The translations under genes were made by a program, and so were the position numbers. A stretch of DNA of 11,010 bases from a virus (Duplodnaviria > Heunggongvirae > Uroviricota > Caudoviricetes): IMG/VR virus record IMGVR_UViG_3300010356_001624, positions 64,001-75,010 of that record; one strand, 5' to 3'. Position 1 is the stretch's first letter; every line of letters begins with the position of its first letter. This document shows positions 1,393 through 8,363 of this stretch, piece by piece. Below the pieces are notes generated by a model. It did not search any database. It saw only the letters and a list, made by a program, of their open reading frames with translations, and was not told the DNA's origin.

Positions 1393-2027
1393 AGATTGGT
1401 AATATTATTTATGAAGATGAATTGGTAAATCATATTATGGTTGATTATGTTAACTACATAAAAGAACCAATTGAATATTCAATTATTGATAAATCTTTAC
1501 CAACATTATACGTTGGATGGAATTTTATGAAATCAACAAATCAAGATAATGAAATTATACAAAATGCCGATATTCTAAAAAAGAAAATAATAACCAATGA
1601 ACTGTATTGGGAATTTTCTTTTAATGAGAATAAATCATCACACATTAAAGGTATTGAGAAATTTATAAATTTATTACCAGAATTTTATTTTTCACCAAAA
1701 TATATGTATGTTGATTTAGACCCTGTTTTTTTCCATTTAAGAAATGTTGAAGATTTAATGGATGTATTACCAAAAACAATAGATTTGTTTTATCAGTATA
1801 AAGATGAAATAATTTATGTATTATTTGATAATAAAATATGGGGTATTAATTTAAATATTTATAAGTTTTTTCAATTTGATGTTGAATTATTAAATACTTC
1901 TATTTCTAATAGATGTTATAAGTATGGTTATTATGATGTTGATGGTGAAATTTATAATAAATATAAAAAACTACTTCCTGATTTTACCAAATTAAAAAGA
2001 TATATAGTTACAATATTATCAAAATGA
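1386..2027 (+). CDS. Hypothetical protein (213 aa)
   Basis: Long ORF overlapping the hldD stop by 7 nt. No catalytic motif recognised. Confidence 0.8.
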   Translation: MVKIGNIIYEDELVNHIMVDYVNYIKEPIEYSIIDKSLPTLYVGWNFMKSTNQDNEIIQNADILKKKIITNELYWEFSFNENKSSHIKGIEKFINLLPEFYFSPKYMYVDLDPVFFHLRNVEDLMDVLPKTIDLFYQYKDEIIYVLFDNKIWGINLNIYKFFQFDVELLNTSISNRCYKYGYYDVDGEIYNKYKKLLPDFTKLKRYIVTILSK

Positions 2028-2038
2028 ATGTTAAGTAG

Positions 2039-2046
2039 TATTTATA
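2039..2046 (+). promoter_or_regulatory. TATTTATA motif, candidate phage late promoter element
   Basis: Intergenic, 20 nt before ATG 2067. An identical motif lies 19 nt before ATG 5586. The 8-mer is common in AT-rich DNA, so support is positional only. Confidence 0.45.
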
Positions 2047-2066
2047 ATAAATAAATTATAAATGCT

Positions 2067-2243
2067 ATGGAAAATAAAATTGATAAAGTAATTGACGATT
2101 TTATTGATAATGAAAATCAAGAAACCCAAAATAAAGAATTTAATAAAAGGGTTATAAAAAAAAGTGATAATTCTATTATTGAACGTCTTGATAAAATCAT
2201 TATTGCAGAAAATGGTAAACAATTACTAAGAGAGGTTTATTAA
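2067..2243 (+). CDS. Small hypothetical protein (58 aa), missed by the ORF track
   Basis: MENKIDKVIDDFIDNENQETQNKEFNKRVIKKSDNSIIERLDKIIIAENGKQLLREVY*. It fills the 2028-2253 gap on the coding strand, follows the TATTTATA motif, and ends 10 nt before the next ATG. Confidence 0.75.
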   Translation: MENKIDKVIDDFIDNENQETQNKEFNKRVIKKSDNSIIERLDKIIIAENGKQLLREVY

Positions 2244-2253
2244 TAACATTCAT

Positions 2254-2958
2254 ATGAAAAAAAATATTAGTTTAAATCCAATAGATAAGCATTTGGATAG
2301 AATAAAATATGTTGTAGATTATAAAATTAACGAATCTGCTAGATATATACCAATTAGTAATTTAGATGAATTTGACGAAATTCCAAATACTAATGAAGCG
2401 GATGATGTTGTAAATGATGATAATTTAGAAAAAAAACCAAAAATTAATAATCCTGAAAAACAAGAGGATGATACTGGTGGAGTTCCAGCAGAAACGCCAA
2501 TACCTTCATTTGATGCAGAAAATCCCAATGAAAATCCAAATAATGAATTAAATAATGAACCTGTAAATGAACCTCAAGAAAATGTTGATAATATTCAAAA
2601 TGATATTATTAGACATAATATTGAAGCCATGAAAACTATTCATAGTGAATTGGAAAATCTTAACAATATGGTTCAATCGTTAAATTCAAAATTGGATGTT
2701 TTAAATTCTGATGTGGAAGAAGTTCGTGAACCATCAACCGTTGAAAAATTAACATCAAGAAAAAATGTTAGTTATCCATATTATTTTAATTTAAACGATA
2801 TGTGGAGTAATAATTGGTTTAATAATAAATATAATACTGGTGATAATATGGAAAATGGTGTTAGAGAATTACCTGATGGTACTTTTATTGCAGATTTTGA
2901 TGATTTACCACAAAAATCAAGAATTGATATAAAAAATAGTTTTACTGAAATTGATTAG
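2254..2958 (+). CDS. Acidic coiled-coil protein, candidate prohead core/scaffold or internal head protein
   Basis: N-terminal leader ending INE (aa 25-27), N/E/P-rich low-complexity linker, and a 4-3 hydrophobic heptad at I129, L133, L136, V140, L143, L147, L150, V154, V157. The ORF is secure; the function is inferred. Confidence 0.55.
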   Translation: MKKNISLNPIDKHLDRIKYVVDYKINESARYIPISNLDEFDEIPNTNEADDVVNDDNLEKKPKINNPEKQEDDTGGVPAETPIPSFDAENPNENPNNELNNEPVNEPQENVDNIQNDIIRHNIEAMKTIHSELENLNNMVQSLNSKLDVLNSDVEEVREPSTVEKLTSRKNVSYPYYFNLNDMWSNNWFNNKYNTGDNMENGVRELPDGTFIADFDDLPQKSRIDIKNSFTEID

Positions 2959-2960
2959 TG

Positions 2961-3407
2961 ATGGTGTTAAAAGGAAATCAACATAGTAAAGAAAGATTTT
3001 TTGATTTATTTAAAAAAGTTAATTATATTAATGAATCTAAATTATCACCAGAAAAAAAAATGAAAATCCTTAATGATTTTGTGAATTTTGTTGGAAATAA
3101 ATTGGATATTATGGATAATTTACCAAATATAAAAATATCTAATGATGATTTTGCAGCAAAAAAAATGAAATCATTTGGTAAATATACACCAGATTTAAAA
3201 GAAATTGTTGTTGTAATGGTAAATAGAAATTTGGCAGATGTTTTAAGAACATTAGCACATGAAATAGTCCATCATAAACAGAATTTAGAAAATAAATTAG
3301 ATGTTAATTCAAATGATGATGGTAGTGATATTGAAAATGAAGCCAATGCATTAGCAGCAGTTTTTATGAGAGAATATGGTAAAAATAATCCTATAATATT
3401 TGAATAA
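2961..3407 (+). CDS. Zinc metallopeptidase, ImmA/IrrE-like gluzincin signature, with N-terminal leader
   Basis: RTLAHEIVH (HExxH at aa 100-104, nt 3258-3272) followed by IENEANALAA (third-ligand motif). Start placed at ATG 2961 rather than GTG 2958 because the N-terminus then aligns without gaps to the next protein from Met1. Confidence 0.75.
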   Translation: MVLKGNQHSKERFFDLFKKVNYINESKLSPEKKMKILNDFVNFVGNKLDIMDNLPNIKISNDDFAAKKMKSFGKYTPDLKEIVVVMVNRNLADVLRTLAHEIVHHKQNLENKLDVNSNDDGSDIENEANALAAVFMREYGKNNPIIFE

Positions 3408-3409
3408 TT

Positions 3410-5485
3410 ATGAGAGTTTTTAGTCCAATTGGTAGTAAAGAAAGATTATTTGAAATGCTTCAAAGAGTAAATAAAATTACTTTAAATGAGGAAAATATAA
3501 TAAATAATCCAATAGAAAATTTAAAAATAGTATTCAATCAACTACTTAATGATGAAATTGAAATTAAAAGAATAACAAATGATATTGAATCAAATGAATG
3601 TTATACAACAATTGATTGTTTAGGTGAAAATAATAGAGAAATTAATTTTGTTTTCAAAAGTGAATTTATTGAAAGGGAAACTGATGGTGTAATTGAAATT
3701 GAAGATTCAAAATTAATTAATTTTTTTATGGGCAATGATGGTGATTCATTAAACATTGATGAAAACACACTAAAAGAATTTAATGATGATTATAATACAG
3801 AAATTATTGATTTTATTTCTAATTATATTAATTTTGAAGATGATATGAAATCAAAGGTTGATGATTTGGATGAAGTTATTAAATTAATTGATAATATTCC
3901 ATATAAAAGAAGTACAGAAGAATTACAAAATCATAAATCCTATGTTGATGAAAAACCAACAAATCCGAATCTTAGAGTAAACTCACCCGAATTAAATTCA
4001 TATGTTACTGAAAATAATGATGATTTTGATGATGATTTTAATTATGATGATTTAGATGATGAAGATTTGGATGATGGATTAGATTATGATGATAATTTTG
4101 GAAATAATTTAAATAATGATATTGATTTTGATGATGATTCCAATTTAGTAAATAAATATAGTGATAAGGATGCAATGAAGTATAAAGATTTAGAAAATGA
4201 TTATGATGATGAAAACATATCTAATTTAGATTATGAAAATATGGAAAGTTCATCAGAAGATGATGAATTATATAATAAAGCATTTGATAATTTAATGATG
4301 AAAAATAAAACACAAAAAAATCCAAATTATTTTCCGTCAAAATCTGAAGTTGAAAGAGAAGTAAATAGAATTTCTAATTTAAATAAAGAACCCGAAAAAA
4401 GAAAAAAAGGAATGAGAATGGCTAAAAATAAAACACGTGTATATCCATCATGGGCTGATAATTATTTAAGTGAAAATAAATTAAAAAACACAAATGTTGA
4501 TTATATTGAATGGAAGTATTTTAATTCAACTAGTGATGAATTTAAAACGTTTTTAATAAAAAGAGCAGATAATATAATCACTAATAAATATGGTATTAAT
4601 AAATTCAAAATACCAAAAGAAAAATATCATAATTTGATAAGAGATTTAGTCGTTGTATTATTTAAAGAACATATAAGAAGTATGAATGAATCTGAAGATG
4701 ATGTCATTAAGAATGCTGAAGATAATGAAAATCTTAATATTGGTGATGTTGTTGAAGTAAATGGAATAGAAGGTACATTTCAAATAGGTGTTTTAGCAAG
4801 AGAAGGTAAACCTTTTATAATGCCTTTTGATATGAATACAAAAAAACCATATACAAGATTTAGAATATATCTATTTTCATTGAAAGATACTAACATGAAA
4901 AGAATTATGAGGTTTTCAGAAACTGATGGTGGTTTTATTATTGAATCAGAAGAAGAAATTGAAACAACTGAAAAAAATAATTTAGATATTGAAAATCTTG
5001 CAAAAAAAAGGGATGAAATCGGTGACCAAATTGAAGGTGGTCTTGGTGATGATAAGTCACCATTGGAATTTGACCCAGAACAAATTAAATTGGGAATGAA
5101 GGTTGAAATGGAACATACTAATGACCCTATGATTGCATTGGAAATAGCATTAGACCATTTAACTGAAGACCCTAAATATTATACTGTTAAAGAAGACCCA
5201 GAAATAAGCGCACAATTTAATGCAAGTAAGGAAGCAAGTGAATATGATAATGAAAAGGAATTGGTAGATGAATTGTTGGGTTATAAGCCAATAAATGTTG
5301 GTGATTTAACTGAAGAAATTGTTGGTTCTGATAATGCAAAATCGGTTGTGGGTGGTCAAAGTTCTGATAATAATGATGATGAAATAAAAAAATATCAGGA
5401 ATATGAAAAGAAAGATTTTAATAGTTTAAGGGATGATGAAAAAGAAGAATTTTTTGAATTATGGAAAAAATATAGAGAAAAATAA
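3410..5485 (+). CDS. Large modular acidic protein (691 aa), candidate processed virion/internal head protein, with a DUF5661-like domain near the C-terminus
   Basis: Leader homologous to that of the peptidase, D-rich linker (aa ~202-285), basic patch (aa ~326-343), and an SH3/KOW-like segment LNIGDVVEVNGIEG (aa 442-455). The motif QIKLGMKVEMEHTNDPMIALEIALDHLTEDPKYYT (aa 558-592) is one I recognise as DUF5661-like from memory. Confidence 0.6.
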   Translation: MRVFSPIGSKERLFEMLQRVNKITLNEENIINNPIENLKIVFNQLLNDEIEIKRITNDIESNECYTTIDCLGENNREINFVFKSEFIERETDGVIEIEDSKLINFFMGNDGDSLNIDENTLKEFNDDYNTEIIDFISNYINFEDDMKSKVDDLDEVIKLIDNIPYKRSTEELQNHKSYVDEKPTNPNLRVNSPELNSYVTENNDDFDDDFNYDDLDDEDLDDGLDYDDNFGNNLNNDIDFDDDSNLVNKYSDKDAMKYKDLENDYDDENISNLDYENMESSSEDDELYNKAFDNLMMKNKTQKNPNYFPSKSEVEREVNRISNLNKEPEKRKKGMRMAKNKTRVYPSWADNYLSENKLKNTNVDYIEWKYFNSTSDEFKTFLIKRADNIITNKYGINKFKIPKEKYHNLIRDLVVVLFKEHIRSMNESEDDVIKNAEDNENLNIGDVVEVNGIEGTFQIGVLAREGKPFIMPFDMNTKKPYTRFRIYLFSLKDTNMKRIMRFSETDGGFIIESEEEIETTEKNNLDIENLAKKRDEIGDQIEGGLGDDKSPLEFDPEQIKLGMKVEMEHTNDPMIALEIALDHLTEDPKYYTVKEDPEISAQFNASKEASEYDNEKELVDELLGYKPINVGDLTEEIVGSDNAKSVVGGQSSDNNDDEIKKYQEYEKKDFNSLRDDEKEEFFELWKKYREK

Positions 5486-5508
5486 ATTTAAATAATATTT
5501 CTTTTTTG

Positions 5509-5538
5509 AAAAAGGACTACTTATTGTAGTCTTTTTTT
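5509..5538 (+). terminator. Intrinsic terminator
   Basis: Stem GACTAC (5515-5520), loop TTATT, GTAGTC (5526-5531), then 7 T (5532-5538). An upstream A-tract extends the stem. Located 24 nt after the stop at 5485. Confidence 0.8.
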
Positions 5539-5558
5539 GTTGTTGTTGAAAATATTAC

Positions 5559-5566
5559 TATTTATA
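5559..5566 (+). promoter_or_regulatory. TATTTATA motif, candidate phage late promoter element
   Basis: Lies between the terminator at 5509-5538 and ATG 5586 (19-nt spacer), where re-initiation would be needed. Same motif and similar spacing as at 2039. Confidence 0.5.
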
Positions 5567-5585
5567 TTAGAATAAATTTATCATT

Positions 5586-7001
5586 ATGAGTAGAATTAGA
5601 AGTTATTTTAAAAAGTCAAATACTTTAATAACAAATAATACAACAAATAATTCTCAAAATCCTGTTACCGAAATATCATATGGTACTTATGATGGTTGTG
5701 TTAGTAGATATATTTTTGATATTGATTTTTCTTTATTAAGAAAAAGAATAGAAAGGGGTATTATTATTCAAAACAATATTAAAAAACATATTTTACACAT
5801 GACAAATACAATTGGTAGGGATTTAAAATATGTTGGAAAAAAATCATATTCGGAAATGATTGAAAGAGCAAGTAGTTTTGAATTGGAAGTTTTTAATCTT
5901 TCTGAAGATTGGGATGAAGGAAATGGTTATGATTTATTATATGATGATACATTTGCTGATAAATCATCAAAACATGCATCCAATTGGTTTAATAGAAAAA
6001 CAAATTTATTTTGGAATGTAGATGGTGTTTATTCAACTGGTAATACTGAAATTATTGGAAATCAAAGATTTGAAAAGGGTAATGAAAATATTGAAATTGA
6101 TATTACTGATTATGTAAACCAAAGATTATTTGAAAATGAATATAGTGGTAATACTGTTTTTAGTGGTGATTCTTTTGGTTTAGGGATTAAGTTTTTAGAC
6201 TTATATGAATCTTTGGAAACAGATTTTAGACATGCAGTTGCTTTTCATACAAATAAAACAAACACGTGGTATGAACCGTATGTTGAAACAATTTATGATG
6301 ATATCATATTAGATGATAGAAATTATTTTTATTTAGATAAAAAAAATAGATTATATTTATATACAAATTCTATTAGTATTTTAAATAATAATGAAATTAT
6401 TGTTAATCATGTAAATATATATGATAATAATAATAATTTTATTGAAACCATTAGTGGTGATTCAATTACGAATGTTGGTAATGGAATTTATTTTGTTGAA
6501 TATAAAATAAATTCAAATGAATATCCTGATAGTGTTTTATTTGTAGATGAATGGAATTTAACAATGAATGGAGTTGAAAGTAATTATTATAGTAAATTTT
6601 ATTTGATATCACCAGAAAAATATTTTATAATTAATGAAGAATCACAACTAAATTTAGAAAATTATCATTTTAATTTTTGGGGAATTAAAGAATCTGAACA
6701 AATAAAATCTGGTGATATAAGGAAAATAAAAATATCGGTTAAAGAATTGTATACAAACCAAAACAATTTTATTCCATTAAATATTGAATATAGAGTATAT
6801 ATAAAAATTAGTGATGGATATGAAATTGATGTAATACCATTTACTAGTGTAAATAGAACCAAATTTGGATATTATTTTAATTTAGATACATCGTGGTTAA
6901 TACCACAAGTTTATTATATTCAAATTAAGTTAAAATCGGGCGAATATTTTGATATAAAACAACCATTATCGTTTGAAATAGTAAATGATGGATTTTTTTA
7001 A
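5586..7001 (+). CDS. Probable virion structural protein (471 aa, beta-rich; N-terminal DNRLRE/CBM96-like region, C-terminal Ig-like regions)
   Basis: SRYIFDID, FELEVFNLSEDWDEGNG and ASNWFNRKTNLFW segments resemble DNRLRE-type beta-sandwich domains. The C-terminal half has an aromatic-rich alternating-strand pattern. Fold and role are inferred. Confidence 0.45.
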   Translation: MSRIRSYFKKSNTLITNNTTNNSQNPVTEISYGTYDGCVSRYIFDIDFSLLRKRIERGIIIQNNIKKHILHMTNTIGRDLKYVGKKSYSEMIERASSFELEVFNLSEDWDEGNGYDLLYDDTFADKSSKHASNWFNRKTNLFWNVDGVYSTGNTEIIGNQRFEKGNENIEIDITDYVNQRLFENEYSGNTVFSGDSFGLGIKFLDLYESLETDFRHAVAFHTNKTNTWYEPYVETIYDDIILDDRNYFYLDKKNRLYLYTNSISILNNNEIIVNHVNIYDNNNNFIETISGDSITNVGNGIYFVEYKINSNEYPDSVLFVDEWNLTMNGVESNYYSKFYLISPEKYFIINEESQLNLENYHFNFWGIKESEQIKSGDIRKIKISVKELYTNQNNFIPLNIEYRVYIKISDGYEIDVIPFTSVNRTKFGYYFNLDTSWLIPQVYYIQIKLKSGEYFDIKQPLSFEIVNDGFF

Positions 7002-7106: not shown

Positions 7107-8363
7107 ATGAGTAATGTAACTGAAGGAAAATCACCACAAGGTGGTGATTTATCACAACTGAAAAAAATGTTTGCTGACTATCAAAAAAAACAATCACAAG
7201 CAAACAAAAAAACATCATCCCGTGAAAATATTCTTGCTAAGTATTTTGTGCCTAGAAATACGAAAGAAACGTTTAGAATATTACCACCAAAACAAGGTAG
7301 AAAACATATTGAAGAAGCCTATTTTCATGTTGTTACTACAAACATTGCGGGTGGTGTAAAAAAGCATGGTACAATTCTTTATTGTCCTGCACACAATGAC
7401 CCTAGAGTTCCAAAAATTGGTAGTGATGGTAAACCTATGTTAGACCAAAACAATAATCCAATTTTAGTTCCAGCACCATGTCCTCTATGTGCAAAGTATA
7501 AAAAACTATTATCACAACAAGACCCATCATTAATTGGTGTTAAGAAAGAGGAAATGAATGATGTTCAAAAAAGAATAAAGGCAAAAAACGATGAAATATA
7601 TAAAGAAGCCATTAAATGGGAAGCAAAGAAATTTTATATAATTCGTGGTATTGATAAAGGTGCTGAAAAGGATGGTGTTAAATTTTGGAGATTTAAACAC
7701 AATTATAAAAATCAAGGAACTCTTGATAAACTACTTCCAATTTTAGAAGATTATATGATGATGAATCAAGCAGATTTTTCAGACCCATATAATGGAACTG
7801 ATTTAAATATTATAATGACTGATAGTGAATTTAATGGTCGTGTTTATAAGGCAATATCAGCAATTACAGCAAGAGGAAAATCTAAATTATCACAAGACCC
7901 TCTTGTGATGAAACAATGGCTTGATGATGATATTAGTTGGAGAGATGTTTTCTTACCAAAGAAAGCACCAAATATAACACCATTTGAATTTTTAGAAATG
8001 GTTGTAAGTGGTACTAATCCATATTGGGATGATACTGATGCAAAAAATAAACGTTGGGTATTTCCAAATAGACCTGATTTGGAAGAATTAGCAAATACAC
8101 GTAAAATGAATTTAGATTCAACTGAAGATGATAATTTTGAATATGCTTCTGATTTAGAGGATGTTGAATATCCACGTGTAACAATAAGCAATATAACCGA
8201 ATCTGATGTTGGAACATATGATGATGATGCTACTGATTTAGGTAGTGATGTTATGGAAAATGAAGATGATTTGAATGAGAATGATTCAAATGATGATTCA
8301 GAAATAAGTGATTTTTCTGATTATGATATGGATTCTGATGATTATGATGATTTACCATTTTAA
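7107..8363 (+). CDS. gp32: T4 gp32-like single-stranded DNA-binding protein
   Basis: TFRILPP, candidate Zn ligands H74, C93, C125 and C128 (FHVV, YCP, CPLC), KKFYIIRGID...GVKFWRF, DFSDPYNGTDL, and a long acidic tail ending DDLPF. Confidence 0.8.
   Translation: MSNVTEGKSPQGGDLSQLKKMFADYQKKQSQANKKTSSRENILAKYFVPRNTKETFRILPPKQGRKHIEEAYFHVVTTNIAGGVKKHGTILYCPAHNDPRVPKIGSDGKPMLDQNNNPILVPAPCPLCAKYKKLLSQQDPSLIGVKKEEMNDVQKRIKAKNDEIYKEAIKWEAKKFYIIRGIDKGAEKDGVKFWRFKHNYKNQGTLDKLLPILEDYMMMNQADFSDPYNGTDLNIIMTDSEFNGRVYKAISAITARGKSKLSQDPLVMKQWLDDDISWRDVFLPKKAPNITPFEFLEMVVSGTNPYWDDTDAKNKRWVFPNRPDLEELANTRKMNLDSTEDDNFEYASDLEDVEYPRVTISNITESDVGTYDDDATDLGSDVMENEDDLNENDSNDDSEISDFSDYDMDSDDYDDLPF

Follow-up and report, generated by a model that had tools for sequence, protein, structure and literature searches.

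The locus described here raises the question of why two neighbouring genes of a virus, which encode otherwise unrelated proteins, begin with the same short N-terminal segment. The window, that is, the whole stretch of 11,010 nucleotides that was analysed, is the terminal 11 kb (positions 64,001 to 75,010) of the 75,010-bp viral contig IMGVR_UViG_3300010356_001624, which has 24% GC and is approximately 25% complete according to CheckV. Both genes lie on the + strand. The upstream one encodes a small metallopeptidase, with a leader of 25 residues at 2961-3035 (MVLKGNQHSKERFFDLFKKVNYINE) followed by a minimal zincin core at 3036-3407; the downstream one encodes a multidomain acidic protein of 691 residues, with a leader of 27 residues at 3410-3490 (MRVFSPIGSKERLFEMLQRVNKITLNE) followed by its cargo at 3491-5485. 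We argue that this leader of 25-27 residues is probably a longer, two-site variant of the capsid-targeting propeptide of phage T4, used in a clade of uncultivated giant T4-like myoviruses.

An initial annotation of this DNA had noticed that the peptidase (from the ATG at 2961) and the 691-residue protein (from 3410) align without gaps from Met1, with seven identities over the 13 residues from 9 to 21. This alignment was confirmed up to Asn21, beyond which a two-residue indel separates the two leaders ahead of their [IL]NE endings. Leader profiles were searched against 1227 six-frame segments of the 75-kb contig, and profiles built across families were used to avoid circularity. A 30-residue profile made only from 111 other peptidases recovered the N-terminus of the 691-residue protein with 48.5 bits (E = 3e-14), and one restricted to 83 large-family leaders recovered the window peptidase with 20.5 bits (E = 1.7e-5); against the leader profile of its own family, the latter scored 25.5 bits. 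The next-best segment anywhere in the contig reached about 11 bits. Chance had been considered as the origin of the shared leader and was rejected on these cross-family scores.

Homologues of the peptidase typically begin M[KR]VFHxYGSKERLFEMMKRVNxLNE, and homologues of the 691-residue protein, in 10 of 10 cases, MKIYxPIGSKERLFEMxxxVNKIxLNE. The long form of the leader can be written as M-[KR]-x-[FY]-x-x-[YI]-G-S-K-E-R-L-F-E-M-x-x-x-V-N-x(1-3)-[LI]-N-E, and a shorter form as M-x(4-8)-[KR]-R-L-F-E-V-M-x-R-[LV]-D-...-L-N-E. In the large proteins of the 691-residue type the leader is the best-conserved part, the only columns invariant over the whole protein (n = 60) being M1, G8, S9, R12, N21 and E27. 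M1, R12 and E27 were also invariant in an alignment of 40 sequences spanning both families, as was Glu25 of the peptidase leader among 112 homologues. The final Glu, on whose conservation the initial annotation depended, is therefore kept in three separate alignments.

The AlphaFold models of the two proteins have the same N-terminal geometry: a detached helix of low confidence, then a disordered segment that bears the Glu, and then a confidently predicted core. In the peptidase, residues 1-29 have a predicted local distance difference test (pLDDT) score of 49-61, residues 10-20 forming a helix and residues 21-29 being disordered, and the core exceeds 90. In the 691-residue protein the leader helix spans residues 9-21, and residues 24-30 fall below 50.

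The leader is neither restricted to this pair of genes nor found at other places in proteins. A 32-column leader profile, searched against 1.84 billion cluster representatives (clusters at 50% identity) at E <= 1e-3, matched 307 of them. Among the 150 best hits the match begins at residue 1 in 146; in the other four it begins at residue 2, 8, 9 or 57, apparently through mis-called start codons, and the weaker variants of the leader all start 10 residues or less from a Met. The cargo behind it is diverse, as the initial annotation had proposed, and comprises the zincin peptidase, DUF5661 proteins, GP88, DUF3293 and orphans. After trimming of the leader, 132 hits belonged to the DUF5661-type family, a few were peptidases, and approximately eight carried unrelated cargo.

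Five complete related genomes of 250-357 kb have 12, 6, 6, 6 and 2 leader genes. Further N-terminal variants, such as MKKNDKQRLFEVMGRLDKTFKPKLNE, were found in complete relatives on open reading frames (ORFs) of 63-540 residues, and the cargo domains of these genomes include GP88 (PF17338) and DUF3293. In 26 syntenic loci, the slot between the genes of a 234-residue and a 471-residue protein, which in the window holds the peptidase and the 691-residue protein, is filled by 63 ORFs, and 57 of them bear the leader. One complete genome (G001) has further leader genes at 218, 244-252, 260 and 330 kb, far from its peptidase. For the three codon positions, in order, pairwise identity was 0.66, 0.79 and 0.56 (loci of 24-39% GC); with the second position most conserved and the third least, selection acts on the peptide and not on the DNA. 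The two leaders of the window share only 38 of 66 bases.

The end of the leader has the form of a cleavage site. In 148 representatives analysed, a hydrophobic-x-E tripeptide was present without exception, its first residue was L or I in 144, and it read [LI]NE in 131; the position that follows the Glu is variable. A second candidate site, mostly LFE, lies within the leader at residues 13-15, and the leader of the 691-residue protein holds two sites of T4 type, LFE at 13-15 and LNE at 25-27. The initial annotation had called for a gp21-like protease in the same genome, and one is indeed encoded at contig positions 13982-14677: a member of Peptidase_S77, the T4 gp21 prohead protease family (PF03420, 4e-18). 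It aligns with T4 gp21 via the HP and SSRG motifs; the LFE at its C-terminus stands opposite the LAE of T4. The S77 protease was also found in five of the five related genomes searched whole.

Candidate sites for this protease accumulate in the head proteins of the same phage. The first 60 residues of the capsid protein contain six [LI]xE sites, versus two in the next 500 (binomial P = 2e-4, with a background of 0.015 per residue in this phage's proteome). The last site of this capsid propeptide, LKE60/SSDS, aligns with the maturation site of T4 gp23, LTE65/AEIGG; in relatives it reads MINE/SSDS, and the same I-N-E tripeptide ends many leaders. Scaffold homologues carry 21-24 [LI]xE sites. As a side observation on the protease gene, in three of the five related giant phages (G002, G003 and G004; loci L108-L110) the S77 match is split into two segments within a single frame of 598-653 residues, instead of the 231-248 residues seen elsewhere, which suggests an intein or another in-frame insertion.

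The T4 capsid-targeting sequence is the textbook route for loading accessory proteins into a phage head. The T4 internal proteins serve to counter host defences, and foreign proteins have been packaged by means of the tag. It occurs on the internal proteins IPI, IPII and IPIII and on Alt (Mullaney and Black 1996, reviewed in PMC9026906, PMC5694885 and PMC3012670). For IPIII, its first 10 residues are enough for packaging, with residues 4 and 7 important for targeting and 8 and 10 for processing (PMC9026906; PMC5694885), and gp21 recognizes the motif L/I-X-E and cuts after the Glu (PMC9026906). T4 ipII and ipIII begin MKTYQEFIAE. The leader described here resembles this sequence as a putative propeptide at the N-terminus: it begins at Met1, is common to unrelated, fast-evolving proteins and ends in L/I-x-E, in a genome that encodes a gp21-type (S77) protease and the same sites in capsid protein and scaffold. 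Approximately 80-88% of the long leaders have K or R at position 2, F or Y at position 4 and Y, I or V at position 7, where T4 has K, Y and F, a likeness that is only suggestive. Unlike the T4 sequence, the leader has 25-27 residues instead of 10-19, a predicted amphipathic helix and two candidate sites (LFE and LNE), and it is carried by cargoes of up to approximately 1000 residues in uncultivated genomes of 250-357 kb, known here from sequence alone.

Hence, two definitions give two answers. All the features by which the functional class of T4-type targeting sequences can be recognized in a sequence were found for the leader, namely the N-terminal position, portability, the L/I-x-E end and an S77 protease with its substrates. 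The sequence family, defined by 10-19 residues and recognizable similarity to the leaders of T4 internal proteins, does not include it. Since the tag is present on many unrelated proteins and has a T4-type protease motif at its end, the most likely reading is that it is a lengthened relative of the T4 tag.

The initial annotation had also drawn a parallel with phiKZ gp175, which fits less well, since the motif here is L/I-x-E, as in T4, and not S/A-x-E. Some likeness exists. In SPN3US, gp53 and gp54 have identical 15-residue N-termini, and long propeptides occur on head and ejection proteins of phiKZ, 201phi2-1 and SPN3US (PMC5694885, PMC10052503); these are giant phages too, their gp21-related protease likewise has its cleavage site after a Glu, and the conserved N-termini shared by inner-head paralogues of the SPN3US type have been proposed to function like capsid-targeting sequences. 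However, propeptides of the phiKZ type have an S/A-x-E motif, mostly exceed 100 residues and are shared among paralogues, not among unrelated folds. With 25-27 residues and L or I almost always in first place, the leader lies outside this type, and the head genes of the contig are near those of T4 (as judged from the Pfam matches of portal, gp23 and gp21) and not chimallivirus-like.

An independent parallel with the T4 tag comes from other homologues of the peptidase. In other viral contigs, the peptidase core starts exactly past the leader boundary or is joined to further domains, and some homologues begin MKKFKQFLNE, MLKFKQYLKE or MKKFREYLKE, with adjoining unrelated ORFs that start alike. 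A protein search with the peptidase against cultured phages returned only distant cores devoid of the leader (Synechococcus phages B3, B23 and S-SRM01 and Flavobacterium 'immuto' phages). The cultured cyanophage B23 (Kyanoviridae, S77-positive) has four ORFs with short N-termini of T4 type, versus 0.5 expected. These include MKTYSQFITE and MKTYREFISE, and the peptidase homologue itself begins MNYKQFLRE. The same cargo fold thus has the canonical tag of T4 type in one lineage and the long leader in another.

We infer core binding, cleavage, presence in the virion and injection from the module itself, its position, portability, ending and linker geometry, and from the protease and the capsid propeptide that accompany it. 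During prohead building, the amphipathic helix (approximately residues 9-21) would dock each newly made protein onto the scaffolding core. The gp21-type serine protease of the same genome would then cut after the invariant Glu of [LI]-N-E in the flexible linker, and probably also after L-F-E within the helix. The leader fragments would exit the head, and the mature cargo would stay inside and be ejected with the DNA. The zincin metallopeptidase and the 691-residue DUF5661 protein are plausibly injected effectors that act early. A complex prediction for scaffold and leader scored 0.00, below the mark, which speaks neither for nor against binding.

If this reading is true, the capsid-targeting principle reaches beyond the leader sequence of T-even phages and into a large clade of uncultivated giant phages. 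The injected proteins of phages that cannot be cultivated could then be listed from sequence, with approximately 300 clusters (at 50% identity) so far, and a widespread small metallopeptidase and the DUF5661 proteins would be nominated as injected effectors. If one of these phages were brought into culture, the leader would also be at hand as a packaging tag. A more far-reaching proposal, which we regard as possible but doubtful, is that the leader is a clade-wide address label for a hypervariable set of proteins injected together with the DNA, that the near-universal zinc protease among them attacks host defence or DNA-bound proteins on entry, and that the tag is bipartite and not derived from that of T4, with a scaffold-binding helix and two protease sites. 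Under this proposal, candidate early effectors could be collected by the hundred with nothing more than a profile search.

Several observations weigh against a capsid-targeting role. No homology between the leader and the T4 sequence MKTYQEFIAE is detectable, and the leader is more than twice as long. The leader genes adjoin replication and recombination genes (SSB-like, UvsX-like and FEN) approximately 50 kb from the head module, and such a context gives no sign of late expression. The [LI]xE motif is short and, at the background rate given above, common in an AT-rich proteome. The leader of the window peptidase is a degenerate copy, with FFD in place of LFE and without the MKVFxxY start. Moreover, none of the cultured phages in the INPHARED collection carries the leader. 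Promoter motifs are neutral in this respect: the late-promoter string TATAAATA occurs 17 times on the + strand and 32 times on the - strand, too common at 24% GC to inform, and matches to sigma-70-like promoters were at shuffle level only.

The conserved amphipathic helix, strictly N-terminal on diverse proteins whose genes adjoin those for replication and recombination, would also suit an interaction helix that is retained and never cleaved, and that docks unrelated proteins to a common partner such as a host hub, a phage assembly factor or a replication factory. In that case binding would be the reason why the Glu is kept. We consider this unlikely, because the invariant hydrophobic-x-Glu lies in a disordered linker after the helix, which is the place of a cleavage site and not of a binding residue, and I-N-E also ends the capsid propeptide of relatives. 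In addition, leaderless peptidase homologues start exactly at the leader boundary, and a matching protease is encoded in every related genome searched whole. If the leader is indeed removed, the co-encoded zincin might do it, as a zymogen that removes the leader from itself and from the adjacent protein without any involvement of the head. In approximately 30 loci the gene next after that of the peptidase bears the leader, the weak fold neighbours selecase, abylysin and jannalysin are zymogens (by their entry titles), and the conserved C-terminal NPIIFE of the peptidase could fill an active site. Nevertheless, leader genes stand far from the peptidase in complete genomes, as in the four regions of G001, and the same sites recur in the capsid protein and scaffold of the phage. 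Enzymes of the gp21 family are documented to cut after the Glu of L/I-x-E (PMC9026906), and the peptidase homologue of the T4-like cyanophage B23 has a T4-type targeting sequence instead, which altogether makes processing by the zincin very improbable.

A conserved 5' segment could, on the other hand, mediate gene swapping within the variable slot, and the leader would then be a functionless by-product at the DNA level, such as a recombination hotspot or a copied translation-initiation cassette. To this possibility we give almost no weight. Conservation is lowest at the third codon position and highest at the second (0.56 versus 0.79, across loci of 24-39% GC), the conservation persists between families of less than 50% identity, and the leader DNAs of the window have little more than half of their bases in common. 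A capsid-targeting propeptide thus remains the reading that we favour for the peptidase and the 691-residue protein.

The initial annotation had extended the leader to a third consecutive protein, the 234-residue product of the gene directly upstream of the peptidase (2254-2958, + strand; syntenic in 29 loci), which begins MKKNISLNPIDKHLDRIKYVVDYKINE. The claim held for the peptidase and the 691-residue protein. For these two, the portable targeting or propeptide module is backed by the N-terminal position, the unrelated cargo, the invariant Glu, the S77 protease and the [LI]xE-rich capsid propeptide, and only the inclusion of the 234-residue protein had to be abandoned. This protein gave no match to the leader profiles even at E 100, and hhalign assigned a probability of 1.3% to the comparison of its family N-terminus with the leader; profile searches and hhalign together ruled it out as a third leader bearer. 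The I-N-E at its residues 25-27 is real and conserved, as I/V-N/S-E, in its family. Among 20 homologues Y23, E27 and Y31 are invariant, I or V stands at position 25 in at least 90%, and P29 is conserved too. As the flanking Y23, P29 and Y31 are as conserved as I-N-E, the tripeptide belongs to a family-specific N-terminus and not to the portable module. The family consensus is MKNxKKxxLSEEHLRKIKYRxxYxINE/SPRYRPL, followed by an acidic low-complexity region and a coiled coil. Although it lacks the shared leader, the 234-residue protein could be a substrate of the protease.

The cargo of the first leader gene is a minimal zincin metallopeptidase, with HEIVH at residues 100-104. Its core scored 21.8 bits against Pfam Peptidase_M78 (PF06114; cut-off 22), and the protein matched PHROG 87 'metallo-protease' at 4.9e-7. 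We found 592 homologues, nearly all of 148 residues. The HExxH and ENEAN motifs are invariant. Foldseek returned weak matches to PprI/IrrE, selecase, Spartan/Wss1 and ArdC (E of 0.016 or worse). The protein resembles the M78/IrrE-PprI/ImmA and SprT-Wss1-Spartan families and the minigluzincins in its HExxH with a downstream acidic motif and in its alpha/beta zincin core of approximately 120 residues, with weak matches in sequence and fold. It differs from them in having no partner repressor or DNA-binding domain, and in its phage leader and C-terminal NPIIFE. To our knowledge, this enzyme fold is not known among the T4 internal proteins.

The C-terminus of the peptidase (window 3390-3407) reads NPIIFE and is followed by the stop codon; in 112 sequences I146 and E148 are invariant, and N143, P144, I145 and F147 are conserved in at least 90%. 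By its sequence, this natural C-terminus looks like the product of a cleavage at [LI]-x-E, and NPIIFE could sit in a protease active site or auto-inhibit the zincin. In eight loci (L042, L051, L061, L062, L070, L074, L079 and L082) the peptidase core is found at the C-terminus of a nucleotidyltransferase-like domain (YPGxFKPPHxGH). The same fusion occurs in the cultured Flavobacterium 'immuto' phages, where the domain is annotated as an NMN adenylyltransferase (NMNAT-like). Two of the peptidase homologues in NCBI (P0085 and P0114) are labelled 'Dehalococcoidia bacterium' and 'Candidatus Paceibacterota' and come from contigs that measure 357,275 and 362,763 bp, respectively. The former length is also that of the IMG/VR phage genome G001, a genome with terminal repeats and a completeness rating of 100%. 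These metagenome-assembled records are probably mis-binned giant phage genomes.

The 691-residue protein matched Pfam DUF5661 at 5.7e-9, at residues 556-592, and this domain is present in 44 of 60 family members. In the AlphaFold model, an alpha/beta N-domain (31-140) is followed by a disordered acidic linker, a helical domain (282-430), the DUF5661 domain and C-terminal helices. Fold searches with this model in PDB and BFVD gave no informative neighbour. Literature on DUF5661 and on capsid-targeting sequences in jumbo phages or metagenomes contained no description of the leader that we could find. Long disordered stretches (200-278, 434-523 and 616-653) separate the confident domains, and the hydrophobic-x-Glu sites VTE201, IIE512 and LTE635 lie within or at the border of them. 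The same protease may cut the cargo further, into domains.

The head genes of the contig, all outside the window, are of T4 type. They encode a large terminase, a gp20-type portal (PF07230, 5e-63), the Peptidase_S77 protease, a scaffold-like protein of 523 residues and a Gp23-type major capsid protein (PF07068, 3e-70). Close relatives are complete IMG/VR genomes of 246-357 kb, with capsid proteins 77-80% identical. Based on this head module and these relatives, the contig is identified from its sequence as a fragment of a giant T4-like myovirus. A nucleotide search of the region against cultured phages gave only a 70-base low-complexity match, to Lak megaphages.

Within the window, ADP-heptose genes are followed by the genes of a 213-residue, a 58-residue and the 234-residue protein, the peptidase, the 691-residue protein, a hairpin and the 471-residue protein, and then by SSB-like (single-strand-binding), UvsX-like and FEN-type exonuclease genes. 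The 213-residue protein (1386-2027) has no family assignment and occupies the same position in related loci. The 58-residue ORF (2067-2243, + strand) is the first gene of the apparent transcription unit, and its homologues are found at the same position in 26 loci. The positions of this small ORF (MENKxEKAxxxF...EREGLIERVDK), which likewise could be placed in no family, and of the 213-residue protein are kept across 23-26 related loci. Just 3' of the 691-residue gene, at 5507-5539 on the + strand, lies a hairpin with a T-run that resembles an intrinsic terminator. It is the sole terminator-like site on the + strand in 1900-5700, a region in which shuffled sequences averaged 0.2 sites.

The conserved 471-residue protein (5586-7001, + strand) has no leader and forms the right border of the variable slot. 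It was found in 31 loci, with E down to 1e-184, and its matches in the Atlas are viral clusters only, some of them with CBM96. It is probably a virion surface protein, with a beta-sandwich and CBM96-like features. The 418-residue protein encoded at 7107-8363, upstream of the UvsX-like recombinase, had no match in Pfam or PHROG. It has a CPAH...CPLC cysteine cluster and an acidic C-terminal tail, and is probably a divergent single-strand-binding protein of the gp32 type.

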